A stretch of DNA of 64,000 nt from Candidatus Omnitrophota bacterium (lineage in GTDB: Bacteria > Omnitrophota > Gorgyraeia > Zapsychrales > Fredricksoniimonadaceae), in assembly GCA_044225175.1 (NCBI GenBank), contig JBGAJA010000005.1, positions 17,869-81,868 on the forward strand. Direction: 5' to 3'. The notes beneath the pieces were generated by a model. It ran no database searches. It saw only the letters and a program-made list of their open reading frames with translations, and was not told the DNA's origin. Within the stretch, counting starts at the first letter, position 1. Every line of letters begins with the position of its first letter. Positions 5,029 through 29,100 of the stretch are shown in pieces. Made by a program: the position numbers and the translations under genes.

Positions 5029-5039
5029 TAAATTTTAAA

Positions 5040-5077
5040 AAATGACGGACACTTTAATAAGTGTCCGTCATTTTTTT
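5040..5077 (+). terminator. Rho-independent terminator after the Mo-hydroxylase/lipoprotein operon
   Basis: Perfect hairpin 'atgacggacac tttaataa gtgtccgtcat' followed by TTTTTTT. Confidence 0.75.
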
Positions 5078-9598: not shown

Positions 9599-9612
9599 GC
9601 TGAGTTTCAACA

Positions 9613-9636
9613 AAAAGGTGTCTGACACCTTTTTGA
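9613..9636. repeat. 24-bp palindromic element AAAAAGGTGTCTGACACCTTTTTG; a terminator-like hairpin in the convergent gap between the receiver gene and pntB
   Basis: Perfect inverted repeat flanked by A and T runs, so it can act as a bidirectional terminator. The same element recurs twice in-frame at 26831-26893. Confidence 0.65.
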
Positions 9637-9642
9637 CATGTT

Positions 9643-11022
9643 TTAATGCTGGCTGCTTTTAAATTCTGCTACTAAAGCCTGGACGGTTTGTTTGGCATCA
9701 CCAAAAATCATTCTTGTATTTTCATAGTAGAACAATTCATTTTCGATACCTGCAAAACCAGTTGCCATGGAGCGTTTTAAGACGAAGACAGTCTTGGCTT
9801 GATCGGCATTAATAATGGGCATGCCATAGATGGGGCTTGATTTGTCATGGCGGGCAGCTGGATTGACGACGTCATTAGCGCCAATGATGATGGCAACGTC
9901 CGTATTTTCCATCAAAGGATTGATGGCATCCATTTCCATAAGTAAATCATAGGAAATATTCGCTTCTGCTAAAAGTACGTTCATATGTCCTGGCATGCGA
10001 CCTGCAACAGGGTGGATGGCATATTTTACATCGCAGCCATTTTTTTCTAACAATTCGCCAAGTTCACGAACAGCATGCTGAGCTTGGGCAACGGCCAAAC
10101 CATACCCTGGAATAACGACAACAGATTTAGCGTTCTCCAAGATTAGGAATGCATCTTCTACTGACACAGATTTGGCTTCCTTTTTCTCAGTTGTGCCTTC
10201 TTTTTTAATAACTTTATTAAATGCACCAAACAAAACGTTAGTAATTGAGCGATTCATGGCCTTGCACATAATGATACTTAAAATGATACCGTTAGCACCA
10301 ACAATGGCGCCGACAACAATCAGAAGGGTGTTATGAATAACGAAACCAGTAGTGCAAGCAACAACGCCGGAATAGCTGTTTAAGACAGAGATGACAACAG
10401 GCATGTCAGCTCCGCCAATAGGGATAACCAAAAAGATCCCAAAGATAAGTGAAAGAACCATGATCGCAACAAAGATACTATATTGGGCTGGGTTCATGAT
10501 AAACATGATGCTAAGAATAACAATGGAACTGATTAAAGCGATATTGAATAAACGCTGGCCGGGAAATAGAATGGCTTTTCCAGGAATTTTTTCACTAAGC
10601 TTTCCCCAGGCAATAGCACTTCCAGTAAATGTTAACCCACCAATAATGATAGAAAGTAAAAGAGTGATTGTGTTGGTCAAATCGCTAGCTCCATGAACAT
10701 GATAGGCTGTCCAATCCACAAAAACGCTAGCTAATGCGCCACATCCGTGCAACAGAGCAATCATTTCTGGCATTTGGGTCATGGCAGCACGAAATGCAAC
10801 CAAAGCCCCTAATGCGCCGCCAATAAGGATACCTAAGATAATCCATTGATAACTTATAATATGTCCGTTAGCAAGGGTAGCTAAGACGGCTAAAAGCATA
10901 CCAAGTGCTGAAAGGATGTTTCCTTTGCGAGCGGTTACAGGTGAGCCTAGGAATTTTAAACCAAAGGCAAATAAGATGGCACTCACGATATAGACTAAGT
11001 TGGCTAAGAATTCAATGTTCAT
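9643..11022 (-). CDS. pntB: NAD(P) transhydrogenase beta subunit
   Basis: 459 aa. N-terminal multi-TM domain plus a C-terminal NADP(H)-binding domain (GYGLAVAQAQH...). Classic PntB. Confidence 0.9.
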   Translation of the reverse strand: MNIEFLANLVYIVSAILFAFGLKFLGSPVTARKGNILSALGMLLAVLATLANGHIISYQWIILGILIGGALGALVAFRAAMTQMPEMIALLHGCGALASVFVDWTAYHVHGASDLTNTITLLLSIIIGGLTFTGSAIAWGKLSEKIPGKAILFPGQRLFNIALISSIVILSIMFIMNPAQYSIFVAIMVLSLIFGIFLVIPIGGADMPVVISVLNSYSGVVACTTGFVIHNTLLIVVGAIVGANGIILSIIMCKAMNRSITNVLFGAFNKVIKKEGTTEKKEAKSVSVEDAFLILENAKSVVVIPGYGLAVAQAQHAVRELGELLEKNGCDVKYAIHPVAGRMPGHMNVLLAEANISYDLLMEMDAINPLMENTDVAIIIGANDVVNPAARHDKSSPIYGMPIINADQAKTVFVLKRSMATGFAGIENELFYYENTRMIFGDAKQTVQALVAEFKSSQH

Positions 11023-12649: not shown

Positions 12650-15600
12650 ATGAAATTCCCGTTTAAAAAGCCTTTAATCCTGTGGATTCTCTTTGCCTTT
12701 GTGGTCAATACTTTTGGGCCCTTGCCAGCTTCTGCCCAAGAGATAACACTCCCAAAGCCTGGTGAGATGGTGCATTTAAGTACAGCTGTAAACCCACCCA
12801 TCCTAAAGGGACTCAAGGTCCACCCAGATAACCCTTTTAGGTTCGATTTTATCCTGGATCAGGGGGAACAGCCCGACGCTATTTCGACTAAATTGAAGGA
12901 AGATTCCACCCGTCTAATCAAGTACTTTTTAGCCTCTTTAACGATTCCCGAAGTGGATCTTTGGGTCAACTTAAGCCCCTATGAGAAAGACAGAATCATC
13001 CCAAACAGCTTTGGCTTAACCGAGATGGGGCGCGACCTTCTAGCCCAGGATTACATGCTCAAGCAGATTACCGCCAGCTTGATCTATCCAGAAGCCGAAG
13101 TGGGAAAGAGATTCTGGAAGCGAATCTATGAGGAAGCAGCCAAAAGGTATGGAAACACCAATATTCCAGTCAACACCTTCAACAAGGTTTGGATAGTTCC
13201 TGAGAAGGCGGTTGTCTATGAGAACGCAAAGGCTGAGACAGCTTATGTGGTTGAGTCCAGGCTCAAGGTTATGCTGGAAGAAGATTACCTATCCAAAGCC
13301 AAGAATGACCTTCAATCTAAAGCCAACAGCCCGTCGCTAAATGCCTCTAATTTAGGATCTCAAATCATCCGAGAAATCGTCCTTCCAGAGCTGATCAAAG
13401 AGGTGAATGAAGGTGCCAACTTTGCCCAGCTCAGACAAGTCTACAGCAGTCTAATCTTAGCTACGTGGTACAAGAAAAAGATCAAAGACAGCATTCTATC
13501 CCAAGTCTATTCAGACAAGAATAAAGTCTCCGGAATTGATATTAATGATCCAGCCCAAAAGGACAAGATCTATCAGCAGTATATCCAAGCTTTCAAAAAG
13601 GGCGTCTACAACTACATCAAGGAAGAAATTGATCCAGCAACTCAGCAAGCTATTCCTAGGAAATATTTCTCAGGAGGAGCTAAGTTTGGCAATTTGGCTA
13701 TGACAACTACAAACCAATTTCCTCAAGTTATTCCTGCTGGTTTAGTTGCTATCCAAGCCGAAATTAAGAGTAGTAATCCAGAAGGAAAGACAAATGCGGC
13801 AATGATAGCCCCTCTAACTGCTGGAGAAAAGTTTGTATCAGAATTGGACGATAAAATTATTCTTGATGGCCAAGGGCGAATTAGGTACGCCGCTGGACAT
13901 CCTACACCAATTGTTAAACCATTGTTTACATTCCTAGCTGAGCGTCATGGTGAGACTTTTGCAAATCTTGACGAACGGGCGCAGGGAGTTGCTGATGAGA
14001 ACCATTTAAATGAATCAACGCCGCATGGATTGGATCAAGGCAGAGATTCCGCCAAAGGATTATTCCAACGAGCAGATATTCAAGAAATGATTCGAAAGAG
14101 AATTCCTATTGTTGTCCTAACGAGTGGGAAAAAGCGAACGACGCAGGCCGCAGAACCCTTTATTAGACGCGTAGAAGAAGCAGGTGGGATTATTGAATAT
14201 GCCCCAGAGGAATTGATGAAAGGCGCTTCTGAAATAAATTTTGGAGCTGTGGAAAATAAAAAACTATCTCATTTTTCTCCAGAAGAAATTGAGATTCTTA
14301 ATCAGTATAGAAAACAATTAAGTGCAACTGCCAAATTCAAAGGCGGTGAAAGTTTTTTAGAATTGTTAATCAAGATCAAGAAATGGTTAGAAGAGTTAAA
14401 TAGGCTTTATGCCGGCCGGACAGTCGTGCTATTTGGACATGGTACACAACTAAAAGCAGTTCAAACCTTGCTGGGAGATCCATTGATAGTAGATCCTTCG
14501 GGATATATTAATCGAAATGCCTACGTAATTCCTAATGGCAAGATTATTGAATTACATAGTCCAGCCATGGCTGCCCCAGCCATAAAATCTACTTTCGATG
14601 GATCAGCTCTAAAGTATAGCTCTGATTCTATAATCCAAAACGCACCAGAATTTGAAAGGGTTGATATGTTTCTTGATTGGTATAAGGCCAATCGAGAAAA
14701 ATTACCAGCCAAAGATGGTTATAGAGAATTCTTAAGTGCTTCTTATACGGCTAACGTTTTAATGCATGCAGGTAAGATCACAATAGAAAGGTTGGAAGAA
14801 TTTCAAAGAGAGGCAGGTGCTTATGAATATGGTCAAGAATCTGCTGTAATCCAGAATGCTCCGGAATTTGATGATGTAGAGAAATTCTTAAAATGGTATG
14901 ACGACAAACATGAACAACTGCGGTCTAAGGACCATCCTGAAGAATTTTTATCTAGAAGTTACACCTTTCAAGTCTTGAGACGTTGGGGAAAAATTAAGCA
15001 AAAGAAATTCCAGAGTATTTTGAGGCATATTATCTCTTATGAATACGCCCAGGAGTCTATAGTTATTAAGCATGCCCCAAAATTTGAGGACGTGGAAGCC
15101 TATCTTAAATGGTATAGAACTAATCGAGAACAATTGCCATTTAAAGATGATCCTAAGAAATTCTTAACTGCTGGTTCTGTTGTTATGGCATTGATGCATG
15201 CTGGAAAGATTGATAAAGAAAATTTTCAAGATTTTCAAAGGCATGTAGGAGCTTATGAATATGCTCAGGAATCCGAAATTATACTCAGTGCTCCAGAATT
15301 TAATGATGTAGGATATTTTTTAAAATGGTTTAGAACGAATGGAGAGAAATTAAGATCTAAAGAAAATCCTGAGATATTTATAAGTGCAAGTTATGCCGCG
15401 CTTTGTTTAATGTATGCCAGAAAGATTAAACGCGAGAAATTGGAGCATTTTCAAAGGCAGGCTGGAGCTTACGAGTATGCCCAGGAATCTGCGATTATAC
15501 AAAGTGCACCAGAATTTAATGAGATAAGCGAATTTATAAAATGGTATAGAGCAAATCGTGTGCTACTGCGCTCAAAAGAGCATCCAGAAGAATCTTTAAG

Positions 15601-18600
15601 CGGAAGTTATACGGCTCAAGTTTTAATGCATGCAGGTAAGATTCCTTCAGAAAGATTAACAAAGTTTCAGTTACATGTGGGAGCCTATCAACGCGCAATA
15701 GATGAAGAGAAAATAATTACAGCAGAAATGCAAAGAATTTGGAAAGAGTCGATTCACAAAGAACTCTCAGGGCTCCCTCGAATCAAAGCCGCCTTTAATC
15801 CGCAACTATTATTAAATAAAAGAATCTCAAAAGGTCCATCCAAACCATTAGGAGCGGAATATCGCAATCTAATCCTCACATATGCGTATGAGTATTATGG
15901 AGAAAAAGAAGAAGCTTCGATAAACCCGGCTATGGCTTCCAATCTGGGAAACGTTTCTGTAGCAGAGAGAGCTTCCTATCTTGTTTATCGATATTTATTG
16001 TTGGCTTTATATCAACTGCGTGGAAGTGGTGAATATTTGGATCGTCGTGCAATCATGGATCATTTAATGAAAAATTCAGATTATAAAAGGGAGGTTTTTA
16101 ATCCTAATTCAGGCTGGGTTGATATTAATTTTAGGAAAACTGGCATTTTAGGAGTGGGTCTTATTATTAAAATGCCAGATGAGAAGAAATTTAAGTTAAC
16201 AGAAGCCGGAATTGCTTTTATGGAACGATCTTATCGATTAACAGGTGATGCTTTCATTTTAGCTTTAAAAGATCAACAAAAACAATATGCTCAAGGTTCA
16301 ATAGATTCTAAGAGCGGGGAAGATCCTGTTGAACTGGTTAGATATCCCAAAGATTTCAATATTCTTAATAAAGTTAAACTAAAAATTGCTATTGCGGACA
16401 GCGTTGTTCAAAAGACAGTCGATTCTAAATTACAATATGTGGTTAATTTAGAAGAGGTAATTGAGAAATATTCTGAAGGATTATCGCCTAGATACTTAAT
16501 ACAAGCACAACAACTTTCTAAGTTAATAGAAAAACAACTTGTAGCCTTTGGCTTTACCAAGGCTAGAGATATGGGTCTTGATAAATCAAATTTATATAGT
16601 AGAGACCGTTCCTATAATCTTGATTTGATTGCAAATCCAAACATCATTAGAACCCAAGATGAAATAAATTTTGAACCTTATCGCAATTTTCTACTTGCTT
16701 TGCATAGGCTCAATTCTGAAGAAATAAAAGATTCCTATAGCCCTCAAGAGGTTTGGAAAAAGATTCAAGTGCTCTCGCGAGAAATGGAATTGCAAGTAGT
16801 GTTTTCTTCGGTAACTGCAAAACAACTTAAAAGTGCTTATGAATCTATGGCTCAAAGGGGTGTTTTATTAATAGAAAGAACTGAGAAAGGGTATAGGTTA
16901 AGTTCTGAAGGATTGAAATTCATGCAAGAAAATGGGAATTTGATAAAGGAAAGTTTGCTTAAGGCTCTAAAAAGACATTTGTATGATATAGAACAATACG
17001 AGTTAAGAAGGGAATGGTTAAGATTGCCGCAAGCTGGTGGGACATTGAACAATGCTCCTACAGGTGATCAAGTTTATAAACCTAAGTTATTATCTGAAGT
17101 TGAATTCAGAAGTATAGAAGAAATATTCGAAGCGTCATCGCACCCAGAAGTAGGCCAGTGGTTAACTTCTCAAGATATTGTTGCTTTTGAAGGACATCAA
17201 ATTGGCAAGGACAGAATTCTTAAAGCTTTAAAGTCTCCTTTTAGAACTAGTCTTGAGAGTATGGGATTGGCAAATACAGTTTTTTATCCTGTCAAAGTTA
17301 ATCAACCCATGTTAATTCAGAAAGATTTTGAGCAATTAATCAGCAAAAGAAAAGATGAAGGAAATTTCAATATTCTCATTTATCAAATTGGACTAGGTGA
17401 GGAAGGTTTTCTTGAAACTAGAGATATTTTTAACGCTTTAAAAAATGCGTTTCATCAAGCGGGGATATCTCAAGAAGATCAACAAAAGTGGAAAGTTACA
17501 TTTATTGGTGTTGATGTCATTAAAACTATTGTGGATGATTTTATTCAGAAATTTTCTGTAAAGACTGATTTCCAGAGCAATATTTTGACCATTAGAGCGG
17601 ATGCTTTGGTAGAGGACCAGATGAGATGGTTAGGAGAGAAGTTTAAGTCAGATTATTTGTTCTTTCGTAATGTAGCCTATGGAAATTATCGAGCGTCTAG
17701 AGGTCATTTAAAAAGCTATATCAATGTTGTAGAGACGCTTGCTATTTATCTGGGTACCAAAAATATACTTAAACATCTAAGTGTTCCAGAAACTCGTTTT
17801 GTAATTGAGCCTGCCCAAGAATTTGAAAACACCCAGAATTATGTCTTCCATGCCCCAGGAACACGCATCGTAACATTGAAACATTATGATCCCACAAAAG
17901 AATTTTTAGATCTAAACAATGTGATTAACACAGGGACAGGAATATATAAGGTATTAGATCCAGGTGCAATGGACAGAGAAGGTCTGCAATATTTTCTTGA
18001 TCATGTTACTGAATTTGAAAAGCCTGTGGCTGACCAAGCTCAAAAGGCCCCCTCTCTTTCTAGTTATTCTACTTTGAAACTTAATGATCGCAGCAATTTA
18101 TCAATGACCCTTATAGGCTCAAATCCAGGATCTCGAGCAGATTATATTAAGGTGGGGAATAGGAAAGACTATAAGTATGGATTTACTCGAGAAGAATTGC
18201 TTCAGCGTGAGGCGGCTTTGATGCAGGTGTTATCGACAGATCAAAGATATAATCAAATAAGAAAATATCTTCCAGTTTTTAAAGGTTTGGGACGTCTTGA
18301 TATTTCTGATGTACGTAATGTGATACCGCGTCTGCCTAGGCGTTCTTCAATTCCAGATGTTCCTCCGAGGTTTTTTCAAGAAGAGGATTTCTTAGGTTCA
18401 TATATGGTAACAGAGGATGCTGGTGATCCGATATATGCTATTGCCAATGAAGTTAGGGAAGGAAAACTGACCGAAGATGACTTGTTGAAAACAATGTCCT
18501 TGTTAGTTCAATCAATCTACGATTTTCATCATGCTGGGATTGCTTTTGGAGACCTCACTCCAGATGAAATTTTTATAGCACCCTCTACAGAGAAGGTGAC

Positions 18601-21100
18601 TATTATTGATTATGGTTTGGCAATGATTGATGAGGATAGAGATTTTGGTTATGAGAATCTAAAATCTTTTGGATTAGATAGATGGGAAGGTAGATCTGAT
18701 TATGGGGGTGGAGGTCCTGATTGGTTTAAGCGGGACGTAAGAACTGTGTTGACAATTTTGGATGCCATGACGCCAAATTCTAAATTTGGAAATTTTTTTA
18801 TAAGCCAGTTTAATATTGAAACAGTGCTTAAGGATTTTGACAATAATCCCTTATCTATATCAGATGTATTGTCGAAAGTTCAGGATATAGAACGTCAATG
18901 GTATGAGCATTCCAATGCGGCCATGACTGCTAAATTGCCCGTTGGAGTCGTGCAGTATTGGAGAGACTTGCCAAAACCTTGGGAATCGACTCTTGAGCGT
19001 TATCCTAGTCATCATCAAACGTTAATGGACAGAATGGATGCAATCACTAAAAGGGTTCGTAAATTTGCACAAGGAAAGGCAATTACTCTGACTGAGATTT
19101 GTTGTGGAACAGGTAAGTTGTTTGCTTCTTTAGTTCAATTGCCCGGTGTCACAAAGGCTGTTGCTATTGATATTAATGCCAAGGCTTTAGATAGTTTGAA
19201 AGATCGATTGCATGGAATTGAATCAAAAACTTCCGATATTAGCGTTTTTGAAGGTGACATCAATGGTCCGCTGGCCAAAGACATTGTGCCAAACTCCGAT
19301 GTCATTGTGATTAACGATGCATTAATGCATATGCCTGATTTAGAAAAGGTGTTGGACTTGGTTGCTGAGCGTTTGTCGGAAGGTGGTTTATTCATGGGAA
19401 GTGGTATTTCGCGTGAAGGCTTATTTAAAGAAACTCCCATTTTGGGACCTCTTTGGTATGTAGGATATCGTTTTATTCTTCCTCAATTCGAAAGGGTTGG
19501 TTTAGGAGCGCTTGCTAACAGGGTCGTGCAGTGGGAATCGCTTCGTATCCGCCTTACAGCTCAAAGTCAAAGAGAGATTAAGGAGATGCTAGGAAAAAGA
19601 TTTGATATTGAAGAGATCACTGTAAAAGGACGTCACTATCAATTTACCGTCAGAAAAAAAGATGGAAAAATAGAAGATAGCGCTCAAATATCTGAGGAAT
19701 CTGTGAAGACCCCGGAAAATATGGTAAAGGTTCCTGTCACCCAAGAGGAGTTGGTTGGTTTTATCGGGGATATTCGAACTAAGATGCAAGCTATTTACGC
19801 GCGTAGTAATGATCCAACGAACAGTTCGTATTGGCATGTTTTTGATGAGATCGTAAATACATATAAAGAAGAAGTTAATGCGTCAGACAATCAATTGAAA
19901 ATGTTTGCTGATTTATATACTGAAACGAGTTTAATAGGGCCGCTCATTCCTCGTCCCAAAGAAGCCAAACATGTGCTTTTAGCTATGGCCATGTTTTTAA
20001 TGCTTGCCAATCATAGGAAGGAAAATGTATATACGAGCGAAGTATTCAATGAATTAAGAAATCTTATTGATGACTATAACAAACAATCCTTTGTAACTTT
20101 TCCTTTCAGTTTGTCCTCGCTATTTGTAATCGCACTAACGCCATACTTCCATGATCCAGACTTATTTGTTGAGTTATGGAATAAATTAGACCAACTTCCA
20201 GATGATATTAGTCCACAAGCAAAATTTTTATCTATGTTTTCGGTCTCTGCTCATTTAGGAGTAGTTCGTGTTGATGGAGACGATGATTTTAAGATAATTT
20301 ATCAAAAGATCGAGGGAATTTTGGCTGACAAATCACATCCCGATCAAATTCCAGACTCTTTAAAGAGAGTTCTATTAAACTCTATTGCTAAAGTTTTGCC
20401 TTCCATTTATCACCCTAATCATAAGGACGTTTATTCAGGCTTTCATCGTATGATTGGATGGTCATCTGGTTTTCGAGAGAAATTTTTAAATTTACTTACA
20501 AAGCATAAAGATTTGATCTGTGATATTTATTATGAATATTTTTCAAATTCTGATACTACGGATGATCCTATTCTGGCAGGGCTCGGCTTTAGTTTTTATT
20601 TAAAAGCAGAAAAAGAGTTATTGAGTAAAGTTTTGCGAGACAAAATACTTCAAATTACTGGATCACAACAATTACCACCGCTTAACGTATTAATTTCTGA
20701 TAGCCGTTTCCATGAAATATTAAAGGAAAGTCCTTTATACTCCAGATTAAAAGCTAATTTTTTTATTAAATATCTGCGACAATTTGTCGAGCTGAAAGAA
20801 GATAGTCCAACAGCTGTCGGTATTGAAGATCAACAATCAGTAAGCCCACAGCCTGGTTCCAGCCCAGCCATGGCGGTACGGACGGAAGCAAAGCAAGGGG
20901 GGGTTGATTTTACGGCAAATAAAACTCCTTTAGAGGTTCAAAATGTAGGAGGCGACATTCAATTTCATATTGATCTTGCCATGATGAAACAATTGCAAGC
21001 TGCTCCGGGGTTTTATCCTGTCATTATGAATATAACCCCGCTAAAAGATTTAAAGGTATTTTTAGACGTAGAGACGACCGGCCGGTCGTCTCTACAATAA
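12650..21100 (+). CDS. Giant secreted multidomain protein, paralog 1 of a 3-member family. Domains: conserved N-module, histidine-phosphatase-like, five tandem ~72-aa repeats, protein-kinase-like, SAM-methyltransferase
   Basis: Single ORF of about 2816 aa counted from the signal peptide MKFPFKKPLILWILFAFVVNTFGPLPASAQE. The ORF track start at 12608 is probably upstream of the real start. The N-terminal 340 aa are paralogous to 26159.. and 42980.. and the C-terminal 60 aa are paralogous to the C-termini of the other two. Motifs: LAERHGETFAN (RHGE...N) and LFGHGTQ; HAGIAFGDLTPDEIF...IIDYGLA; LTEICCGTGK...VIVINDALMH...GGLFMG. Confidence 0.8.
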   Translation: MKFPFKKPLILWILFAFVVNTFGPLPASAQEITLPKPGEMVHLSTAVNPPILKGLKVHPDNPFRFDFILDQGEQPDAISTKLKEDSTRLIKYFLASLTIPEVDLWVNLSPYEKDRIIPNSFGLTEMGRDLLAQDYMLKQITASLIYPEAEVGKRFWKRIYEEAAKRYGNTNIPVNTFNKVWIVPEKAVVYENAKAETAYVVESRLKVMLEEDYLSKAKNDLQSKANSPSLNASNLGSQIIREIVLPELIKEVNEGANFAQLRQVYSSLILATWYKKKIKDSILSQVYSDKNKVSGIDINDPAQKDKIYQQYIQAFKKGVYNYIKEEIDPATQQAIPRKYFSGGAKFGNLAMTTTNQFPQVIPAGLVAIQAEIKSSNPEGKTNAAMIAPLTAGEKFVSELDDKIILDGQGRIRYAAGHPTPIVKPLFTFLAERHGETFANLDERAQGVADENHLNESTPHGLDQGRDSAKGLFQRADIQEMIRKRIPIVVLTSGKKRTTQAAEPFIRRVEEAGGIIEYAPEELMKGASEINFGAVENKKLSHFSPEEIEILNQYRKQLSATAKFKGGESFLELLIKIKKWLEELNRLYAGRTVVLFGHGTQLKAVQTLLGDPLIVDPSGYINRNAYVIPNGKIIELHSPAMAAPAIKSTFDGSALKYSSDSIIQNAPEFERVDMFLDWYKANREKLPAKDGYREFLSASYTANVLMHAGKITIERLEEFQREAGAYEYGQESAVIQNAPEFDDVEKFLKWYDDKHEQLRSKDHPEEFLSRSYTFQVLRRWGKIKQKKFQSILRHIISYEYAQESIVIKHAPKFEDVEAYLKWYRTNREQLPFKDDPKKFLTAGSVVMALMHAGKIDKENFQDFQRHVGAYEYAQESEIILSAPEFNDVGYFLKWFRTNGEKLRSKENPEIFISASYAALCLMYARKIKREKLEHFQRQAGAYEYAQESAIIQSAPEFNEISEFIKWYRANRVLLRSKEHPEESLSGSYTAQVLMHAGKIPSERLTKFQLHVGAYQRAIDEEKIITAEMQRIWKESIHKELSGLPRIKAAFNPQLLLNKRISKGPSKPLGAEYRNLILTYAYEYYGEKEEASINPAMASNLGNVSVAERASYLVYRYLLLALYQLRGSGEYLDRRAIMDHLMKNSDYKREVFNPNSGWVDINFRKTGILGVGLIIKMPDEKKFKLTEAGIAFMERSYRLTGDAFILALKDQQKQYAQGSIDSKSGEDPVELVRYPKDFNILNKVKLKIAIADSVVQKTVDSKLQYVVNLEEVIEKYSEGLSPRYLIQAQQLSKLIEKQLVAFGFTKARDMGLDKSNLYSRDRSYNLDLIANPNIIRTQDEINFEPYRNFLLALHRLNSEEIKDSYSPQEVWKKIQVLSREMELQVVFSSVTAKQLKSAYESMAQRGVLLIERTEKGYRLSSEGLKFMQENGNLIKESLLKALKRHLYDIEQYELRREWLRLPQAGGTLNNAPTGDQVYKPKLLSEVEFRSIEEIFEASSHPEVGQWLTSQDIVAFEGHQIGKDRILKALKSPFRTSLESMGLANTVFYPVKVNQPMLIQKDFEQLISKRKDEGNFNILIYQIGLGEEGFLETRDIFNALKNAFHQAGISQEDQQKWKVTFIGVDVIKTIVDDFIQKFSVKTDFQSNILTIRADALVEDQMRWLGEKFKSDYLFFRNVAYGNYRASRGHLKSYINVVETLAIYLGTKNILKHLSVPETRFVIEPAQEFENTQNYVFHAPGTRIVTLKHYDPTKEFLDLNNVINTGTGIYKVLDPGAMDREGLQYFLDHVTEFEKPVADQAQKAPSLSSYSTLKLNDRSNLSMTLIGSNPGSRADYIKVGNRKDYKYGFTREELLQREAALMQVLSTDQRYNQIRKYLPVFKGLGRLDISDVRNVIPRLPRRSSIPDVPPRFFQEEDFLGSYMVTEDAGDPIYAIANEVREGKLTEDDLLKTMSLLVQSIYDFHHAGIAFGDLTPDEIFIAPSTEKVTIIDYGLAMIDEDRDFGYENLKSFGLDRWEGRSDYGGGGPDWFKRDVRTVLTILDAMTPNSKFGNFFISQFNIETVLKDFDNNPLSISDVLSKVQDIERQWYEHSNAAMTAKLPVGVVQYWRDLPKPWESTLERYPSHHQTLMDRMDAITKRVRKFAQGKAITLTEICCGTGKLFASLVQLPGVTKAVAIDINAKALDSLKDRLHGIESKTSDISVFEGDINGPLAKDIVPNSDVIVINDALMHMPDLEKVLDLVAERLSEGGLFMGSGISREGLFKETPILGPLWYVGYRFILPQFERVGLGALANRVVQWESLRIRLTAQSQREIKEMLGKRFDIEEITVKGRHYQFTVRKKDGKIEDSAQISEESVKTPENMVKVPVTQEELVGFIGDIRTKMQAIYARSNDPTNSSYWHVFDEIVNTYKEEVNASDNQLKMFADLYTETSLIGPLIPRPKEAKHVLLAMAMFLMLANHRKENVYTSEVFNELRNLIDDYNKQSFVTFPFSLSSLFVIALTPYFHDPDLFVELWNKLDQLPDDISPQAKFLSMFSVSAHLGVVRVDGDDDFKIIYQKIEGILADKSHPDQIPDSLKRVLLNSIAKVLPSIYHPNHKDVYSGFHRMIGWSSGFREKFLNLLTKHKDLICDIYYEYFSNSDTTDDPILAGLGFSFYLKAEKELLSKVLRDKILQITGSQQLPPLNVLISDSRFHEILKESPLYSRLKANFFIKYLRQFVELKEDSPTAVGIEDQQSVSPQPGSSPAMAVRTEAKQGGVDFTANKTPLEVQNVGGDIQFHIDLAMMKQLQAAPGFYPVIMNITPLKDLKVFLDVETTGRSSLQ
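14630..15710 (+). repeat. Five in-frame tandem coding repeats of about 213-219 bp (~72 aa) inside giant paralog 1
   Basis: Repeating unit SAPEF(N/D)DVExFLKWY(R/D)xNxExLRSKxxPEEFLSxSYTAxVLMHAGKIxxExLxxFQRxAGAYEYAQES. Unit starts are near 14637, 14848, 15066, 15290 and 15503. Confidence 0.75.
21068..21095. repeat. 28-bp GC-rich perfect palindrome GTAGAGACGACCGGCCGGTCGTCTCTAC, copy 1; it overlaps the last codons and stop of giant paralog 1
   Basis: Perfect inverted repeat. Identical copy at 25092-25119. It encodes ...VETTGRSSLQ* and likely acts as a terminator hairpin. Confidence 0.7.
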
Positions 21101-21144
21101 TTGATAATTGCATTTTATTCATTTTGTGATATCGTTTTAATCCT

Positions 21145-22254
21145 ATGAACCAAAATTTCTACGAAAACCTAGCTCACCAAAGTCTAAGCGGTCAAGAATT
21201 AGATGATGCTACATGTGAGCGAATCCTTAGTGACAATCAAATCGAATTACTTCCTTTAGTGAATGCCGCTTTTACTGTTCGCAAACATTATTGGCAGAAA
21301 CAAGTCATTATTCATATCATTAACAATGCTCAAAATGGGCATTGTCCTGAAGATTGTAAGTATTGTGCTCAAGCTAAAACGTCTAAGGCTGACATTGAAG
21401 AATATGGCCTTAAGTCTGATGAAGAAATGCTTCAGGAAGCACGTCAGGCATATGCTAAGGGGGCTTATCGTTATTGCATGGTGTATGCAGGACGAGGCGC
21501 TTCCGAGAAACGCATTGATCGATTGACTAATCTCATACGTCAGATCAAGTCTGAATTTCCTAACAATGAAATATGTGTATCCACAGGTTTGGTAAATGCT
21601 CCTGGTGCAGTTGAATTAAAGAAAGCTGGCCTTGATCGTTTGAACCATAATCTCAACTCATCCGAAAGTCATTATCCTAATATTTGCACAACACACACCT
21701 ATGCTGATCGATTAAGCACGTTATTAGCTGCACGGGCTGCCGGGATTAAGCTATGTTCTGGAATGATTGCAGGAATGGGGGAGCAAAATAAAGATATTAT
21801 TGAAGTTGCTAAACGATTACGCTCATTAAAATCTGAGTCAATTCCTGTCAATTTTCTAATTCCTATTGAAGGAACTGAAATGGCTCCTTCTGAAGCGCTG
21901 AATCCGGAATTTTGTCTAAGAATTCTATGTTTGTTTAGATTTTTAAATCCAGAAGCTGAACTTAGGGTAGGGGCTGGACGGGAAATGCATTTAAGAGGCT
22001 TAGAGGTTTTATCGTTATATCCTGCAAATTCTTTATTTCTACAGGGTTACTTAAATGCCAAAGGAAATTCAAACGGCAAAACTTTACGCATGATTAAAGA
22101 TGCGGGTTTTGATATAAAATCTGAAGAGAATTTAGCTGAATTGGTGGCTCATGAAAATGATGAAGTTTCAAAGGTTTCCGTGGATCCAGTTCAAGTTATG
22201 ATGAAAGATATTAAAGATTTACGTCCTGCCTTGCGGCAGGCAGGCCCGCTCTAA
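21145..22254 (+). CDS. bioB: Biotin synthase-like radical SAM enzyme
   Basis: 369 aa. GHCPEDCKYCAQA matches the BioB CxxxCxxC radical-SAM motif (GACPEDCKYCPQS). Somewhat longer than typical BioB. Confidence 0.6.
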   Translation: MNQNFYENLAHQSLSGQELDDATCERILSDNQIELLPLVNAAFTVRKHYWQKQVIIHIINNAQNGHCPEDCKYCAQAKTSKADIEEYGLKSDEEMLQEARQAYAKGAYRYCMVYAGRGASEKRIDRLTNLIRQIKSEFPNNEICVSTGLVNAPGAVELKKAGLDRLNHNLNSSESHYPNICTTHTYADRLSTLLAARAAGIKLCSGMIAGMGEQNKDIIEVAKRLRSLKSESIPVNFLIPIEGTEMAPSEALNPEFCLRILCLFRFLNPEAELRVGAGREMHLRGLEVLSLYPANSLFLQGYLNAKGNSNGKTLRMIKDAGFDIKSEENLAELVAHENDEVSKVSVDPVQVMMKDIKDLRPALRQAGPL

Positions 22255-22353
22255 AATCCTAAATTTCCATTGTCAAAACCCCTTGGTAAGTCTATAGTTA
22301 AATTCATCCGCTATTTTAACCATTTATAGTTCTAATTAAAAGAAGGACCGTAT

Positions 22354-24165
22354 ATGTCAGTAGAAAAAAGACCAGTAACAAGATTTGAGTTGTTGATGGA
22401 TGCCGGTTTTGGGGCACAAAAAGCCGGAGATATTCTCCTCAGTGCTTTTGTGGCTATGGGTAAGTATGTTTACGTAGAGCCCATGATTCCCGCTGAAATC
22501 TCGCCGCCAGCCAGAAGTAAAGCTGCTCTTTCTGGTATCATTATTCGTTTAGCTGATTTTGATGTTACTAACATTGGTAACGATACTGATTTAATTATTG
22601 CCTCCCACGAAGTTGTCCTCGATCGTCGTCTCGAAGATCGTGAATTCAATGCCAAATGCGTCATTTTATTAGATATGGGTGACCAAGAATCTAACCCGGA
22701 TTCTTATGAAATGGTCCTTAAAAAATGTACCCAAGAAGGTTTAAGTGTTATTCCTTTTCATACCGATGATGTTTCCAAGGAAGTGATTAAACAATTAGGC
22801 GGTAAAGGTCAAAACCTTTATTACCTTGGTATGCTTGCGTACATCTATGATATGGATGAAGAAATCGTCAAAGAAGAGATCCGTAAGACATTTGGAAAGA
22901 AATTAAAGCCTGAAATCATGGAAAAGAACTTAACTCTTTGCCATCAGGGGTATGAATTAGCTAAACAAAAAGTATTTTTTAGAATTAGTGTTGCCAGTGG
23001 TAAGCGTGAGGGAGAGAAGATCTTAATTGATGGTAACTCGGCTTTGAGTATGGGGGTTATTGATGCTGGATTTAAATTATTCTCTGGTTATCCCATTACA
23101 CCAGCCTCTTCTATTATGCATACATTAGCTAAAGAACTTCCTTCCTATGGTGGTATGGTTCATCAAGCTGAAGATGAAATTGCCGCCATTGGAACAGCGA
23201 TTGGTTCCTATTTCGGTGGAGTTCCTTCATTAACCTGTACTTCTGGTCCGGGACTTTCTTTGAAGCAAGAGTTTATCGGATATGCACAATCTGCAGAGAT
23301 TCCATTAGTTGTGATCGACGTCCAACGTTCAGGTCCTTCAACTGGTATGCCCACTAAAACAGAGCAATCGGATTTGCCATCTGTCATTTTTGGAAGCCAT
23401 GGGGATTACACAAAGATTGTCATTGGTGTCAGTAGTGTTATTGATTGCTTCTATGCTCCTCATATGGCTCGTTATTTGACAGAAAAGTTGCATGTGCCTG
23501 TCTTTATTATGAGCGATTTCCAAACAGCAAATAGTTATAAGGTTATTAATAAATTTAAAGTGATTCAAATGAATAAGGTCGATGAAATTCCAGATTTTAT
23601 TCTAGAACGTTTCCGCATGAAACGTTTGCCTGAAAAGATTGAAATGGTTAGAACTTTGCAGTCTATTCCAGGCGAAGAGGGTGGCATGCGACGGGTGACT
23701 GGATTAAATACGGATAAACAAGGTAAGGTCAGTTATTCGGCAACTTCCAATCAGCTTGCTCATCAAATCCGTAATGAAAAAGTCCATCACGTACAACGTG
23801 CTTTGACAAAACCCGAAATGTTTGGTGAAGAATCTGGTGATGTGTTGATCGTTGGATGGGGAAGTACACGTGGAGCGATTGAAGAAGCAGTATTTTTGTG
23901 TAAAAAAGAAGGGATGAAGGTTTCTGGAATGAATCTCCGTGTTGTTCATCCGCTGCCTTTAGTCTTAAATGAAGTTTTTGCTAATTTTAAAAAAGTTATG
24001 ACCGTTGAAGTGGCTTACGGTGATGAACTAAAACCATCCCCGTTAGCATTATTACTACGCGCTCAAACATTGGTTGATATTAAACCGCTTCTGTCGCAAG
24101 CAACAGGACGACCAGTTCGTCCTAGAATCATTATGAATACGCTCAAGGAGGTACTGTCCAAATGA
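22354..24165 (+). CDS. korA: 2-oxoacid:ferredoxin oxidoreductase alpha subunit (fused KorA type)
   Basis: 603 aa. Pyruvate/ferredoxin oxidoreductase domains with GYPITPAS... followed by a transketolase-like C-domain. Translationally coupled to the beta subunit. Confidence 0.8.
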   Translation: MSVEKRPVTRFELLMDAGFGAQKAGDILLSAFVAMGKYVYVEPMIPAEISPPARSKAALSGIIIRLADFDVTNIGNDTDLIIASHEVVLDRRLEDREFNAKCVILLDMGDQESNPDSYEMVLKKCTQEGLSVIPFHTDDVSKEVIKQLGGKGQNLYYLGMLAYIYDMDEEIVKEEIRKTFGKKLKPEIMEKNLTLCHQGYELAKQKVFFRISVASGKREGEKILIDGNSALSMGVIDAGFKLFSGYPITPASSIMHTLAKELPSYGGMVHQAEDEIAAIGTAIGSYFGGVPSLTCTSGPGLSLKQEFIGYAQSAEIPLVVIDVQRSGPSTGMPTKTEQSDLPSVIFGSHGDYTKIVIGVSSVIDCFYAPHMARYLTEKLHVPVFIMSDFQTANSYKVINKFKVIQMNKVDEIPDFILERFRMKRLPEKIEMVRTLQSIPGEEGGMRRVTGLNTDKQGKVSYSATSNQLAHQIRNEKVHHVQRALTKPEMFGEESGDVLIVGWGSTRGAIEEAVFLCKKEGMKVSGMNLRVVHPLPLVLNEVFANFKKVMTVEVAYGDELKPSPLALLLRAQTLVDIKPLLSQATGRPVRPRIIMNTLKEVLSK

Positions 24166-25082
24166 GTACAGAAACTATAGATCCTCAAGCTAAAGCACCA
24201 ATTACAATTAAGGATTTGCAAACTGAGAATCCACGCTGGTGTGCTGGGTGTGGAGATTTCGGTATTATTATGGGCCTCAAACGTTTCATTGTGGAACGTC
24301 AATTGCTGCCTGCCATGACTATGAATGTGTCAGGGATTGGCTGTTCAGGCCGGGCGCCTAATTATTTTAACACCTATGGTGTGCATTCCATCCATGGTCG
24401 TGCTGTCACTGTGGCACTTGGGTTAGCTCTTGCTCGTCCAGACTTAAACTTATTTGTTCATTCAGGAGACGGAGATTCATTAAGTATTGGTGGAAACCAT
24501 TTGATGCATGGGATCAATAAGAATTTTAAATGTGTCTACATGATGTATGACAATGAGCTTTATGCTTTAACTAAGAATCAAACATCCCCAACGACACGTA
24601 AGGACCATGTGACCAATACGCAGCCTCAGGGAAGTTTCTTGAGTCCTATGAATCCTTTAAGTATTGCAATTGGTCTGGGAGCTTCTTTTGTGGCATCTAC
24701 AGCAGATTGGATCCCAGATCATTTGACGAACACTTTAAAAACAGCGTTTGATCATCCAGGATTTGCTTTTGTGCATATCTCTCAGAGATGTCCACATTTC
24801 GATCCAAGTAATTTTGATCATAAGACGTCTACTTGGTTTTCATTCTTGAAGCATCAAAATGGAATTGAACCTGATCGTCGTTTAGCTGATAAAACAGAAA
24901 TCGTTGATCATGATCCTTCTGATCTTGGTAAGGCTTTCCAATTTGCTGCTGCTGAACGCCGTTATTTTGGTTTGTTCTATCAAGATAAAACTAAACCACG
25001 TTATGATGCTATTTTGCAGAATACAATTAAGAATGCAACGCCTAAGGACAGATCAAAAATCTTAGATAAATTTAACGTTTAA
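24162..25082 (+). CDS. korB: 2-oxoacid:ferredoxin oxidoreductase beta subunit (TPP-binding)
   Basis: 306 aa. WCAGCGDFGI and the GDGD TPP-binding motif. Confidence 0.85.
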   Translation: MSTETIDPQAKAPITIKDLQTENPRWCAGCGDFGIIMGLKRFIVERQLLPAMTMNVSGIGCSGRAPNYFNTYGVHSIHGRAVTVALGLALARPDLNLFVHSGDGDSLSIGGNHLMHGINKNFKCVYMMYDNELYALTKNQTSPTTRKDHVTNTQPQGSFLSPMNPLSIAIGLGASFVASTADWIPDHLTNTLKTAFDHPGFAFVHISQRCPHFDPSNFDHKTSTWFSFLKHQNGIEPDRRLADKTEIVDHDPSDLGKAFQFAAAERRYFGLFYQDKTKPRYDAILQNTIKNATPKDRSKILDKFNV

Positions 25083-25091
25083 TTTTTTAAT

Positions 25092-25119
25092 GTAGAGACG
25101 ACCGGCCGGTCGTCTCTAC
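25092..25119. repeat. 28-bp GC-rich perfect palindrome GTAGAGACGACCGGCCGGTCGTCTCTAC, copy 2; terminator-like, after korB
   Basis: Identical to 21068-21095. Preceded by an A/T-rich stretch. Confidence 0.7.
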
Positions 25120-25130
25120 AAATTTCCCCT

Positions 25131-26060
25131 ATGGAAAATGTCATTATTATTGGTTCCGGCCCAGCCGGCCACACAGCTGCGATTTATGCTGCTCGTGCCA
25201 ATCTAAAACCTTTGATGTTTGAAGGGCAGTTTGCCGGAGGAGTTGCAGCTGGTGGTCAATTAACCACAACGACCGAGGTTGAGAATTTCCCTGGATACTC
25301 GACGATCTCTGGACCTGAATTAATGGAAAAAATGCGTCAGCAGTCTATTCACTGTGGGACGCGCATTGTGACTGAGACGGTTGATAGGGTTGATTTATCC
25401 AAGAAACCATTTAAAGTTATTGCAGCTGGCATCACATATGAAGGTAAATCTTTGATTATTACAACCGGAGCAACAGCCAAGCGAATGGAACTTCCCGGTG
25501 AAGATCGTTTATGGCAAAAGGGAATATCTGCTTGTGCTGTCTGCGATGGCGCTTTGCCTTTTTTTCGTAATAAAGTTTTAGCTGTTGTTGGTGGAGGCGA
25601 CTCTGCTGTTGAAGAAGCAGGTTATTTGACGAAATATGCGTCTAAGGTTGTCATGTTGGTTCGCCGCGATGTGCTTCGTGCTTCTCAAGTCATGCAGCAT
25701 CGTGCCAAGCATAATCCTAAAATTGAAATTATGTATCACACAATTCCTATAGAAGTCTTAGGAGAGAAATCTGTGACAGGCTTAATGATCAAAAATGTTT
25801 CTACTCAAGTTGAATCCACGATAGATGTTGGTGGTCTATTTTATGCAATAGGTCATACTCCTAACACGGCCTTTTTAAATGGCCAGATAGAATTAGACGA
25901 TTCTGGTTATATCAAAACGAAACCAGGAACTACACAAACAAGTGTGGATGGTGTTTTTGCCGCAGGTGATGTTCAAGATAAAATTTATCGCCAGGCCATT
26001 ACTTCTGCTGGAACTGGCTGTATGGCTGCCTTAGATGCGGAACGCTTTTTGAGCCATTAA
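25131..26060 (+). CDS. trxB: Thioredoxin-disulfide reductase
   Basis: 309 aa. IIGSGPAGHTAAIYAAR FAD motif, CAVCDG redox-active disulfide, GGGDSA NADPH motif. Confidence 0.9.
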   Translation: MENVIIIGSGPAGHTAAIYAARANLKPLMFEGQFAGGVAAGGQLTTTTEVENFPGYSTISGPELMEKMRQQSIHCGTRIVTETVDRVDLSKKPFKVIAAGITYEGKSLIITTGATAKRMELPGEDRLWQKGISACAVCDGALPFFRNKVLAVVGGGDSAVEEAGYLTKYASKVVMLVRRDVLRASQVMQHRAKHNPKIEIMYHTIPIEVLGEKSVTGLMIKNVSTQVESTIDVGGLFYAIGHTPNTAFLNGQIELDDSGYIKTKPGTTQTSVDGVFAAGDVQDKIYRQAITSAGTGCMAALDAERFLSH

Positions 26061-26158: not shown

Positions 26159-29100
26159 ATGCGAAGACTAATAGTCGCTCTAATCTTGGTTTGCTTTATT
26201 ATAAGCTCTTTGATTCCTATGCCTGCCAATGCCCAGGAATTTGCTTTGCCTGTCCCTGGGACGATGATTCATCTAAGTTCCCAATACACTCCAGCCCATT
26301 TAGCTGGCCTTGTGATCCACCCCGAAGATCCATTCAAATTTGATTTTTTAATTCATCGTGGCGATCAATTCGTAGGGGATGGGCTTGCCCCATCCCAAGA
26401 AGGGCGAATGCAAGATTCGCCCCTACAAGATAAACAGGTGGTCTATTCAAAATTAATTAAATACTTCCTAGCTTCACTAACCGTCCCCGATGAAGACCAA
26501 TGGGTAAATTTATCTCCCTATGAGAAGGAGCGTATCATTAATGAGAATTTTGGTAAAACAGAGATGGGGCGAGATCTGTTGGCCCAGGACTATCTATTGA
26601 AACAGATCACCGCATCCATGATTTATCCCCAAGACAAGTTAGGAGAGAAGTTTTGGGAGAAGGTGTACAGGCAAGCATGGGAGAAGTACAAGACAACCAA
26701 TATCCCAGTAAATACGTTTAATAAAGTATGGATAGTTCCCGATGAAGCAGCCGTGTACGAATCAGGGAATACAGTGTATGTGTTAAAGAACCATTTAAAA
26801 GTCATGTTAGAAGAAGATTACCTAGCCAAGAAAAAGGTGTCTGACACCTTTTTGGATGGAGCAGGTGTTAAAAAGGTGTCAGACACCTTTTTGACAAGCC
26901 AGGTGATGCGGCAGATCATTTTGCCGGAGTTGGAGCGTGAAGTTAATGAAGGGAAGAACTTTGCAAATCTTAGGCAGATCTATAGTGGGATGATCTTAGC
27001 TACATGGTACAAACGAAGCCTTAAGGAATCCATTCTTTCTAAAGCCTATGCCAATAAATCGAAGGTCAAGGGGGTCAATCAGGTTGATACCAAGGCCAAT
27101 GAGGATATATATCAGCAATATTTGAAATCCTTTAAGAAGGGAGTATTTAACTACATCAAAGAGGATGTGGATAAGTATTCGAAACAGGCTATTCCTAGGA
27201 AGTATTTTTCAGGTGGAATGACCCATGGGTTAGAGAAAGTGAATGTTTATAGTTCAGATAAAGCCATGCCGGCTGAATATCGTCCTGATGCCGCGACGCT
27301 ATCAGGCCTTGATATAGCTCAGGTATTACTAAGAACGGATAGGGAAATAACAGATATAAGAAATGATGCTAGTAGAAGAATAGACATCAATTTGTCTGAA
27401 TTTATTTATAAATTCTTGTTAACTAAGTCAGGAATATACAGATTATTTAAAGGAAATCCCCCTATTCAAATGTCTAGATCATGGAACATCAAAAGAGAAA
27501 AGAAGAGTGAAGATCAAGAATTGCCAGACCGTAGTTATTATGAGCAATTGAATGATGAAAATGATGCTAAATCTTTTGATGAATTGATGGCGCAGCTATT
27601 GCCTCAAGTCCTAAATAATAAGATTCCAGGCATTCTTTATAAGCCCAATCAAGCAGGAAATGGGCGAGGAATATTCTTTATTGAGAGAAATTCAGAGGGT
27701 GGTTTAACAGTAACAATGCTTTCAAGACCAAAAAGACAAGGAGAGTTGTCTCCAGAGGAACTTACTCAGATTCTTAGTCCTGGTATAGAAGTCCGAACAA
27801 GTTTAGAAGAAGAAATCATGCAGTTTGATCTTCCAAAGACTATGGGTGAGAATCGTCACAGAGAGATTTTAAAGAATTTGTGGAGTTATTTATCGACAAG
27901 AGAAGGAGCTTATGATTCTGGCATCATTCAAGTGATGGAGTCTTTTGTAAAGGTTTCCAACCCGCAGGAACACAAGCGTCGTGCCTTTGATACTAGGTTT
28001 GTATTTCATGGAAATTTATCTTCTGGACGTATTAAATTTATTTCTAATGAATCAATTGGAAGGGTAGGTTCTTCGTCATACTTTTCTAATTTGGGTGGTA
28101 GTCCCAATCTTTCAGATCATCCTTATGGATTTAAAGGGGAATCAAGGCCGTATTGGTATAATAGCCAGGATATGTTTAAGCCTGTATTTGATGCTTTTCC
28201 AGAGTTGTTTGATTCTTTTAAGAATGCAAAGGCTTCTGAGGAGAAAAGAAAATTTATTGCTGACACCTACAAAAGACTTGAGGAACAATTTAGATACTTA
28301 ACCGAACGATTAAAATCCACTGGAGCTAATTTAGATTTAATGGTGGATGGACAATTTGACTTAATGTGGAAGAAACCCTTTAAAGTCGGGGATTTTCCTG
28401 AGCCGATTTTGGTTGAATCATGGATCAATCTATTAGATCCAGGAAAAGATTTGTCTGGAATTAAGTTTCAATTAGAAGCGGATAAAGATCATGCTATGGT
28501 GATTGCTGTTGGTCAAAAAGAGAAGTTTATACTTCCTCATGGGGTATCGTGGATCAAAATAGGAGAAGTTCCTATTGAAGTCACTTGCAGAGCTAGTGAG
28601 ATTTATTTGAATGCCTATAGGATTGGCTGGCATGGCCCTATTTTAAAAGATGGTTCAATCGATTTGAATGATTTAACTAATACACAAGTGCCTATTGTGG
28701 TTAATAGGTTGCCAGGTAATACCAATATATTAATTATAGAAAATAAATCGTACGAACCTTTAGGAGTTATTCCAAATTATTCAGAAGAATCATTAGGAGT
28801 TAAAAGGCATGGATTGGCTTTGTTTAAGGATCAATCATCTATTTTGTTGTTTAAGAAAGGGCGAGAACAAGATTTTATAATCATGGGGGATTACTTTAAA
28901 GTCAAATTCTCTCAAGAGGGCATTTATTTCTCATCGATGGCATTTGGAATCGAAGATGATTTTATAAAACAAGGAGAGTCGAAGGATTATGACTTGAGAA
29001 ATGGGACAGCTTTTACACTTGAAGTTTCATCTCATGATCCTCGCCGCATCATTATTAGAAATAAACGTACCATCCCATTATATATTTCCAATATTCCGGG

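Follow-up and report, generated by a model that had tools for sequence, protein, structure and literature searches.

A 28-bp GTAG...CTAC palindrome on both sides of bioB-korAB in Candidatus Omnitrophota, a probable REP-like miniature repeat

A 64,000-nt stretch of a Candidatus Omnitrophota contig, called the window here and used for all coordinates, contains two identical GC-rich palindromes on either side of the genes bioB, korA, and korB. The question raised by this locus is whether the palindromes delimit a mobile gene cassette, terminate transcripts, or represent a repeat that is found at these two places for reasons unrelated to the genes in between. An exact scan located GTAGAGACGACCGGCCGGTCGTCTCTAC at 21068–21095 (copy 1) and at 25092–25119 (copy 2), in agreement with an earlier note on this DNA; there is no further copy with up to three mismatches in the window, and 100 shuffles of the sequence yielded no match to the 28-mer. 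The GC content of the element is 64% (18/28) against 38.5% for the window, and the segment between the copies indeed consists of bioB (TIGR00433, 347 bits) and of genes for the alpha and beta subunits of a korA/korB-like 2-oxoacid:acceptor oxidoreductase, both as the note had it. We report that the 28-mer is probably a copy-number-variable miniature palindromic repeat of Candidatus Omnitrophota, similar to repetitive extragenic palindromic (REP) sequences and belonging to a wider class of 28-nt palindromes of the form GTAG-N20-CTAC, and that its flanking of bioB-korAB is incidental. The observations behind this reading are identical copies at non-homologous loci, empty and filled orthologous sites, placement at stop codons, selective usage of reading frames, and compensating changes at the apex of the palindrome.

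The 28-mer is a perfect palindrome of two 14-nt arms, and neither copy is assigned a strand. Copy 1 is situated at the end of a giant gene, P1, where it encodes VETTGRSSL and the first base of the following glutamine codon. Copy 2 is localized in the spacer between korB and trxB, 9 nt past the korB stop codon (25080–25082) and 11 nt ahead of the trxB ATG (25131); here, the flanking T and A extend the element into a 30-bp palindrome. The predicted RNA forms a stem of 12–13 bp with a GGCC loop, the minimum free energies of the 78-nt contexts being −23.0 and −26.2 kcal/mol (z = −5.1 and −5.6). No Rfam family was matched either at the gathering threshold in the whole window or at the E-value threshold in the region 20800–25400, the tRNA scan found no tRNA, and no target-site duplication is visible in the flanks of any copy. 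Since the same arrangement was recovered in two independent Logan assemblies of other runs (loci L001 and L002), it is not an assembly artefact.

The exact 28-mer was found in four contigs of one JGI metagenome, all of them representing loci unrelated to the window, while IMG/VR contains no exact match. One of the JGI copies is localized in frame within a CoaB gene (...FD-VETTGRSSLQ-RIR...), and the CoaB homologues of Omnitrophota lack 8 aa exactly at VETTGRSSLQ. Two more are in frame in paralogous giant genes, in the same hot spot of the N-terminal domain (...FILDRGDR-VETTGRSSLQ-DDSTRLIKYF...), and yet another precedes an rdgB-like gene, in the spacer between stop and start codons. Two copies are present in an ENA contig with 99.97% identity to the contig with CoaB, where they lie in CoaB and in a third giant gene. 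In the paralogous copies, the flanks are 66–86% identical and the 28-mer itself is identical at 28/28 positions. Overall, at least five exact copies were counted in approximately 38 kb of the ERZ3460577/Ga0214923 contigs, which were selected for carrying the sequence. The relatives of both BioB and CoaB are named Omnitrophica or Omnitrophota.

The element belongs to a larger set of palindromes of the same architecture. Omnitrophota loci totaling 1.14 Mb contain 16 perfect palindromes that have no loop and measure at least 22 nt, and 11 of them are 28-mers of the form GTAG-N20-CTAC, with six different inner sequences (e.g., GTAGAGACGCCATTAATGGCGTCTCTAC and GTAGGGAACGGTCGCGACCGTTCCCTAC). The class retains the arms GTAGAGACG and CGTCTCTAC, between which the 10 apical nucleotides differ from variant to variant, with compensating changes. 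The pattern GTAGAGACG-N10-CGTCTCTAC has 152 copies in 116 stretches of IMG/VR (79 non-redundant clusters, with the GC content of 35–64%), where N10 is mostly self-complementary and more than 40 of its variants occur in viral contigs. The variant with N10 = TTGCATGCAA is present, according to PLSDB, in plasmids of Anabaena, Planktothrix, Nostoc, Calothrix, Brasilonema, Gloeothece, and Persicobacter, whereas the variant CAAAATCTTG has no match at the exact-word level in GenBank phages and PLSDB. Among 128 unique copies, 60 are perfect palindromes, the central four bases are self-complementary in 76, and the base outside each end is a purine in 76% (i.e., Y-28-R, a pyrimidine before and a purine after the element). 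A 29-nt imperfect palindrome in glpK (L074) is a doubtful member, with 11 of 14 pairs and an excess of only 5 aa over the GlpK protein from PDB. The conserved arms also hold an outward-facing GAGACG/CGTCTC, i.e., the BsmBI/Esp3I type IIS site, at 21071–21076 and 21087–21092 and at the same offsets in copy 2. This is probably a coincidence, and a reading in terms of restriction sites was dropped, as the class members GTAGGGAA... and GTAGGAGC... have no such site.

The plasmid matches (H1–H26, e.g., NC_020157.1 at 165743–165772 and NZ_AP025293.1), which comprise N10 = TTGCATGCAA and close variants of it, include replicons of Persicobacter psychrovividus. Some of the plasmid copies lie inside genes for polyketide synthases, nonribosomal peptide synthetases, or Hsp70. 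Up to 28 places are reported for one replicon, corresponding to about 14 copies, as palindromes match both strands.

Both the usage of reading frames and the position relative to genes are far from uniform. Out of the 152 copies from IMG/VR, 47 are read as VET..SL, 34 as RDA..VST, and none in the TAG frame, the remaining 71 being outside open reading frames (ORFs) of at least 100 aa; coding copies are confined to the two open frames, which read VET..SL or RDD/RDA..VS. Among the host ORFs are Mu-like genes for portal, Mu-F, capsid, and tape-measure proteins, and in one portal gene (L173) a tandem array of 14-aa units is derived from the palindrome. Outside ORFs, 40 of the 76 copies that have an upstream ORF end in range overlap a stop codon or are located within 20 nt past one, compared to 10.5% of random intergenic positions, and both copies of the window fit this placement. 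In-frame copies in phages (loci L091–L206, e.g., L151, L173, L201, and L203) are usually found in linkers after a conserved domain.

P1 (12608–21100, forward strand) encodes a protein of 2830 aa, which consists of an N-terminal domain shared by the family, a unique middle, and a family C-terminal domain ending in ...KVFLD. The palindrome provides the last ten residues, VETTGRSSLQ, and is followed by the TAA stop at 21098–21100. The earlier note had assigned both the last codons and the stop of this paralog to the palindrome: the former holds for VETTGRSSL and one base of the last codon, while the stop itself lies 2 nt outside. The same note proposed that the true family tail had been lost, and this does not agree with the alignment of the C-termini, as the domain of P1 is complete to ...FLD (...FLG in the family). 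When the C-terminal 511 aa of P1 were used for an exhaustive search, 1082 representatives were retrieved, in which the C-terminal domain alone was matched; the alignments end at query residues 500–510, mostly 500–505, that is, at or just inside the start of VETTGRSSLQ. The residues that follow FLG are unconserved and number 1–18 in 39 family members from the fetched loci and in 150 database representatives; hence the 10-aa tail of P1 is ordinary in length. One of these 39 genes (L037) likewise has a palindrome in its tail. Deletion of the 28-mer from the sequence results in ...VFLDNN and a TGA stop, and deletion of the 28-mer together with AA gives ...VFLD and a TAA stop. Judging from these alignments, the tail of P1 has been extended or rewritten by approximately 8–10 aa, and not truncated.

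The genes between the palindromes are part of a conserved backbone. It includes bioB for biotin synthase (21145–22254), the korA/korB-like genes (22354–25082, with the alpha subunit at 22354–24165 and the beta subunit at 24162–25082), and, directly 3' of copy 2, trxB for thioredoxin-disulfide reductase (25131–26060), all on the forward strand. A promoter-like stretch TTGATAATTGCAT...TGTGATATC (21101–21133, forward strand), upstream of bioB and downstream of copy 1, is homologous to the TTGACA-containing region upstream of bioB in relatives, as directly read from the aligned sequences. The order bioB-korA-korB-trxB-fchA-folD-(Pyr_redox)-TPR-polA is retained in L087, L088–90, and L209/210, and BioB proteins of several relatives are 70–73% identical to that of the window. 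In L211, the whole backbone from bioB to polA is present without giant genes and without palindromes; there, divergent pntB-pntA are located beside bioB, korB overlaps trxB, and fchA directly follows trxB. In L207, other genes are inserted between bioB and korA. The closest relative of BioB (87% identity), for which the context was taken from the gene table alone, has the order pntA|ORF6N|bioB. The window is the same backbone with three giant genes inserted: P1 lies between pntA and bioB, P2 separates trxB from fchA, and P3 separates prfA from prmC, two genes that are adjacent in L036. In terms of gene order, the movable parts are the giant genes rather than bioB-korAB.

The junction of korB and trxB has different contents in different lineages, i.e., a 14-nt spacer with GGAG in L087, the gene overlap in L211, a different hairpin in L088–90, a hairpin with a T-tract in L207, and, in L209/L210, GTAGAGACGAGGCAATGCCTCGTCTCTAC, which belongs to the family of the 28-mer and measures 29 nt. 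This variety makes the junction a recurrent landing or retention site for hairpins. Upstream of bioB, the relatives have ATTGTAAAC followed by the TTGACA promoter-like element (L087, about 9925–9990; L088, about 4885–4950; L209, about 8935–8995; compared with 21096–21144 of the window). The upstream giant gene in L088 and L209 ends in ...FLGIVN and a stop by reading into ATTGTAAAC, L087 has ATTGTAAAC and no giant gene, and in the window, the position of ATTGTAAAC is taken by the palindrome.

With these data, the competing explanations can be weighed. The earlier note considered a cassette delimited by repeated palindromes, whereby the 28-mers would be recombination sites or terminal repeats of a mobile bioB-korAB unit, comparable to 28-bp Xer/pdif or integron-like modules. 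Two identical 28-bp dyad-symmetric sites do bracket about 4 kb, and their length and 11-6-11 symmetry correspond to the size of dif-type sites; in Acinetobacter plasmids, pdif (XerC/D) modules are 28-bp dyad-symmetric sites that bracket a few genes, and L207 shows that gene insertion between bioB and korA is possible. However, the variable presence or relocation of a bounded block relative to its flanks, as expected of a mobile cassette, is not seen in L087, L088–90, L209/210, L211, or L207. The block bioB-korA-korB-trxB-fchA-folD...polA is collinear in six relative lineages, with hairpins or without them, up to the palindrome-free L211, and, differently from pdif modules, it belongs to the conserved chromosomal backbone. 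The same 28-mer is found in frame in CoaB and the giant genes and in an unrelated spacer. No recombinase or transposase was found among the window ORFs of at least 150 aa, the Pfam scan covering the other 35 window ORFs, an Xer-type recombinase context is absent, and the GC content of the block is not anomalous. A cassette is therefore highly improbable. The second proposal of the note, a reused strong terminator module, survives in part. Assuming a selected Rho-independent terminator used twice, to end the transcripts of P1 and of bioB-korAB, would account for the strong hairpin, the location of both copies at 3' ends of genes, and the bioB promoter-like element after copy 1, and some hairpin is present at the korB-trxB junction in 4/6 lineages, that of L207 having a T-tract. 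On the other hand, neither copy has a run of T after the hairpin, whichever strand is read (AATAATTG and AAATTTCC being the tails), and the terminator scan did not call the 28-mer. The terminator-like hairpins of the window (9612–9634 and 5037–5076) have another structure, in which the stem is set between an A-tract and a T-tract. Besides, copy 2 ends just ahead of the trxB start, at a junction where relatives have a short spacer or an overlap, and numerous members of the class lie within ORFs and are translated. Since it has no T-tract, the 28-mer is not a canonical Rho-independent terminator, although it is a hairpin module reused at the 3' ends of transcription units; selection as a terminator seems unlikely.

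Even less probable is that the palindrome serves as an operator for a dimeric DNA-binding protein, e.g., a BirA-like or redox regulator of bioB-korAB and trxB. This could explain why the dyad symmetry is perfect through the center, which is superfluous for a hairpin, and it fits the positions of copy 1 upstream of the bioB promoter-like region and of copy 2 just upstream of trxB. It does not fit the in-frame copies in CoaB, in loops of the giant proteins, and in portal, capsid, and tape-measure genes of phages, nor those in unrelated spacers; moreover, the region upstream of bioB is retained in relatives that have no palindrome, and the sequence of the apical 10 nt is free to differ from one genome to another. 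The remaining explanation, an artefact of sequencing or assembly, for example, a linker or a chimera joined at a palindromic k-mer, can practically be dismissed. A perfect palindrome with the outward GAGACG/CGTCTC does resemble a synthetic stuffer, and palindromes can confuse assemblers, but the same loci were assembled independently in Logan, JGI, and ENA data, neither reading frames nor gene order are disturbed at any copy, and related variants are present in finished cyanobacterial plasmids. As for the flanking of bioB-korAB, both junctions are gene ends, where the class accumulates, and this is why the copies are found on both sides of the block.

The closest counterpart among known systems is the family of GTAG-tagged REPs (Di Nocera, De Gregorio & Rocco 2013, PMC3733652). 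Like these, the 28-mer is a small GC-rich palindrome within the range of 20–40 bp, able to form a stem-loop and tagged by a terminal GTAG, as every 28-nt member of the class starts with GTAG and ends with CTAC; it is dispersed, and it forms sub-families with compensating changes in the stem. GTAG REPs mostly follow ORFs at a distance of less than 20 bp, in co-directional or convergent gene pairs, and may overlap or supply ORF ends; intragenic ones are most frequent in Opitutus terrae, a bacterium of the Planctomycetes-Verrucomicrobia-Chlamydiae group, and the in-frame peptides often start with V (PMC3733652). The elements described here are likewise situated just 3' of ORFs, overlap ORF ends, and have intragenic in-frame copies starting with V; repeats that extend the 3' ends of genes are also known from other work (PMC3184786). 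In contrast, the published tag is unpaired and present at one end only, whereas in the 28-mer GTAG pairs with CTAC, and the published stems are mostly 6–9 bp with a free loop, in place of the fixed 28-nt, near-perfect palindrome with a symmetric center that we observe. The sequence GTAGAGAC does not occur in the text or supplements of PMC3733652. With the REPs mobilized by REP-associated tyrosine transposases (RAYTs; E. coli TnpA-REP, PDB 4ER8; Nunvar 2010, PMC2817692), the element shares a GTAG-headed hairpin, presumably non-autonomous and mobilized in trans, and repeats that are uniform inside one genome but differ from genome to genome. REPINs (Bertels & Rainey 2011, PMC3116915), as doublets of about 70–110 bp, differ from the single 28-mer. 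The palindromic elements of Rickettsia (Ogata 2000, as cited in PMC3733652 and PMC3184786) are similar in being in-frame palindromic repeats tolerated in surface or linker regions; RPE-1 elements are about 100–150 bp long, encode 30–50 aa, are restricted to their lineage, and have no GTAG...CTAC architecture, compared to 28 bp and 9–10 aa here.

Members of the GTAGAGACG family occur in plasmids of Nostoc, Anabaena, and Calothrix. In heterocystous cyanobacteria, Elhai and co-workers reportedly described, in 2008, small dispersed repeats, which are said to be palindromic mobile repeats of approximately 21–27 nt that cause no target duplication and are found inside genes and other repeats. To our knowledge, the occurrences in Omnitrophota and in phages lie outside that work.

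Several observations weigh against the assignment to REP-like repeats. The exact 28-mer has no match in 185,579 GTDB species representatives, and the 64-kb window holds only two copies. No RAYT or Y1 transposase was detected in the window by the Pfam scan of the other 35 ORFs, and a tblastn search for RAYT/IS200 in 1.18 Mb of Omnitrophota and 1.0 Mb of viral loci, using E. coli TnpA-REP (verified as PDB 4ER8) as the query, was negative as well, albeit single-sequence tblastn is insensitive. In plasmids of Kovacikia, Gloeocapsa, and Chloroflexota, the REPs next to RAYT genes have an asymmetric structure consisting of GTAG, a 9-bp stem, and a 7-nt loop. The pairing of GTAG with CTAC and the symmetric center (76/128 copies) are not predicted by a hairpin-only model. 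The net length change at coding sites varies (+8, +4, and +1–2 aa), without the constancy expected of simple cut-and-paste of a fixed unit; an in-frame unit with a constant length of 30 nt, to which the Y...R flanks pointed, was rejected, as these changes contradict a constant insertion size.

Together with the fixed length of 28 nt, the symmetric architecture hints at recognition of duplex DNA or at a step that generates palindromes. An alternative reading is that the GTAG-N20-CTAC 28-mers, often Y-28-R and thus 30 bp long, constitute distinct cross-phylum dyad-symmetric micro-elements that do not depend on RAYTs, are carried by phages, and are handled by an enzyme recognizing the duplex arms GTAGAGACG/CGTCTCTAC. 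We regard this as a minority view, with a low probability. If true, the class would be common to Omnitrophota, cyanobacteria, Bacteroidota, and Mu-like phages, with in-frame remodeling of protein loops and C-termini.

For the REP-like repeat, which we prefer, a scenario can be outlined. Copy 1 probably landed at the end of P1, just after FLD, so that the tail was rewritten to VETTGRSSLQ and a stop, with the bioB promoter-like region downstream; copy 2 probably landed in the short korB-trxB spacer. By analogy with GTAG REPs, new copies may arise via a single-stranded hairpin intermediate, with the help of a trans-acting HUH tyrosine transposase (RAYT-like) or another enzyme. REPs of E. coli stabilize the mRNA upstream of them and can stall terminating ribosomes if a stop codon lies no more than about 15 nt away. 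The transcribed 28-mer (−23 to −26 kcal/mol) might similarly form a barrier or pause site at the 3' end, acting as an mRNA stabilizer or a modulator of translation termination rather than as a Rho-independent terminator.

The giant genes of the window, P1, P2 (26159–32371), and P3 (42980–46795), belong to a family with relatives in loci L007–L086. They have in common a signal peptide, a conserved N-terminal domain (about 330 aa), and a C-terminal domain (about 65 aa; GGIDF...PGFxPVI...FLG), and neither domain matches Pfam. The C-terminal GGIDF...FLG domain is found in more than 1000 representatives, and the middle is variable across the family. The N-terminal domain of P1 retrieves hundreds of loci, all from metagenome-assembled genomes (MAGs) of Candidatus Omnitrophota, some records being labeled "uncultured Planctomycetales." There are many giant paralogues per MAG, inserted at differing places of the conserved housekeeping backbone. 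Two variable loops of the N-terminal domain, after FDFILDxGD and after LKVMLEEDYL, are hot spots rich in hairpin-derived peptides (VETTGRSSLQ, VETPLMASLR, VGNGRDRSLR, VIPAKAGIQ, and SPPLVGGARGGG), and the basal sequence is simple. The N-terminal hot spot of P2 contains two decayed GTAG-type palindromes in frame (26372–26426, forward strand; 26372–26396 and 26399–26426), encoding VGDGLAPSQ and EGRMQDSPLQ; placed side by side, they resemble a REP dimer.

The middle of P1 contains His_Phos_1, kinase-like, and methyltransferase domains and has no relatives among the database representatives or the fetched loci; hence, the data contain no orthologues of this paralog. Its combination of histidine-phosphatase, kinase-like, and S-adenosylmethionine-dependent methyltransferase domains spans 13900–19560 of the window. 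Residues 2320–2750, after the methyltransferase domain, have no relative among 1.84 billion representative proteins. A homopolymer of seven G at 20897–20903, just upstream of the C-terminal domain, is six G long in the Logan assembly of SRR28480381 (L002), where P1 is frameshifted and its C-terminal domain is lost; a second indel in L002 is in korA. The G7/G6 difference is either slippage resembling phase variation or an assembly error.

Other palindromes of the window are of different types. At 5037–5076, in the intergenic region before the ORF 5159–6415, an 18-bp inverted repeat without mismatches, which has both an A-tract and a T-tract (AAAAAATGACGGACACTT/AAGTGTCCGTCATTTTTT), looks like a bidirectional terminator. 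A second family, AAAAAGGTGTC[T/A]GACACCTTTTT, which is absent from all fetched loci, has three copies, at 9612–9634, 26831–26853, and 26870–26892. The first is 8 nt downstream of the pntB stop and also looks like a bidirectional terminator; the other two are in frame in P2, encoding KKVSDTFL twice, and jointly can form a structure of −46.7 kcal/mol. The rest of the window ORFs are housekeeping, including xanthine-dehydrogenase-like, pntAB, folD, polA, glgA, coaE, rho, prfA/prmC, aroA, trp, menaquinone genes, and acnA.

The 28-mer is ordinary in kind; what is new is the Omnitrophota family, the symmetric architecture, and the link to the copies in cyanobacteria, Persicobacter, and Mu-like phages. 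For annotation, a false lead is removed, as there is neither a bioB-korAB cassette nor a truncated paralog, and the GC-rich oddity is assigned, at the level of confidence given above, to a REP-like repeat. If the mobilizing enzyme were identified, these palindromes would offer a compact system for studying the spread of 28-bp elements across phyla and the tolerance of proteins to in-frame hairpin insertions. GTAG-type palindromes of Omnitrophota rewrite variable loops and C-terminal tails of giant secreted proteins, and the same 9-bp arms are found in cyanobacteria, in Persicobacter, and in structural genes of Mu-like phages, which extends a known phenomenon to a new phylum.

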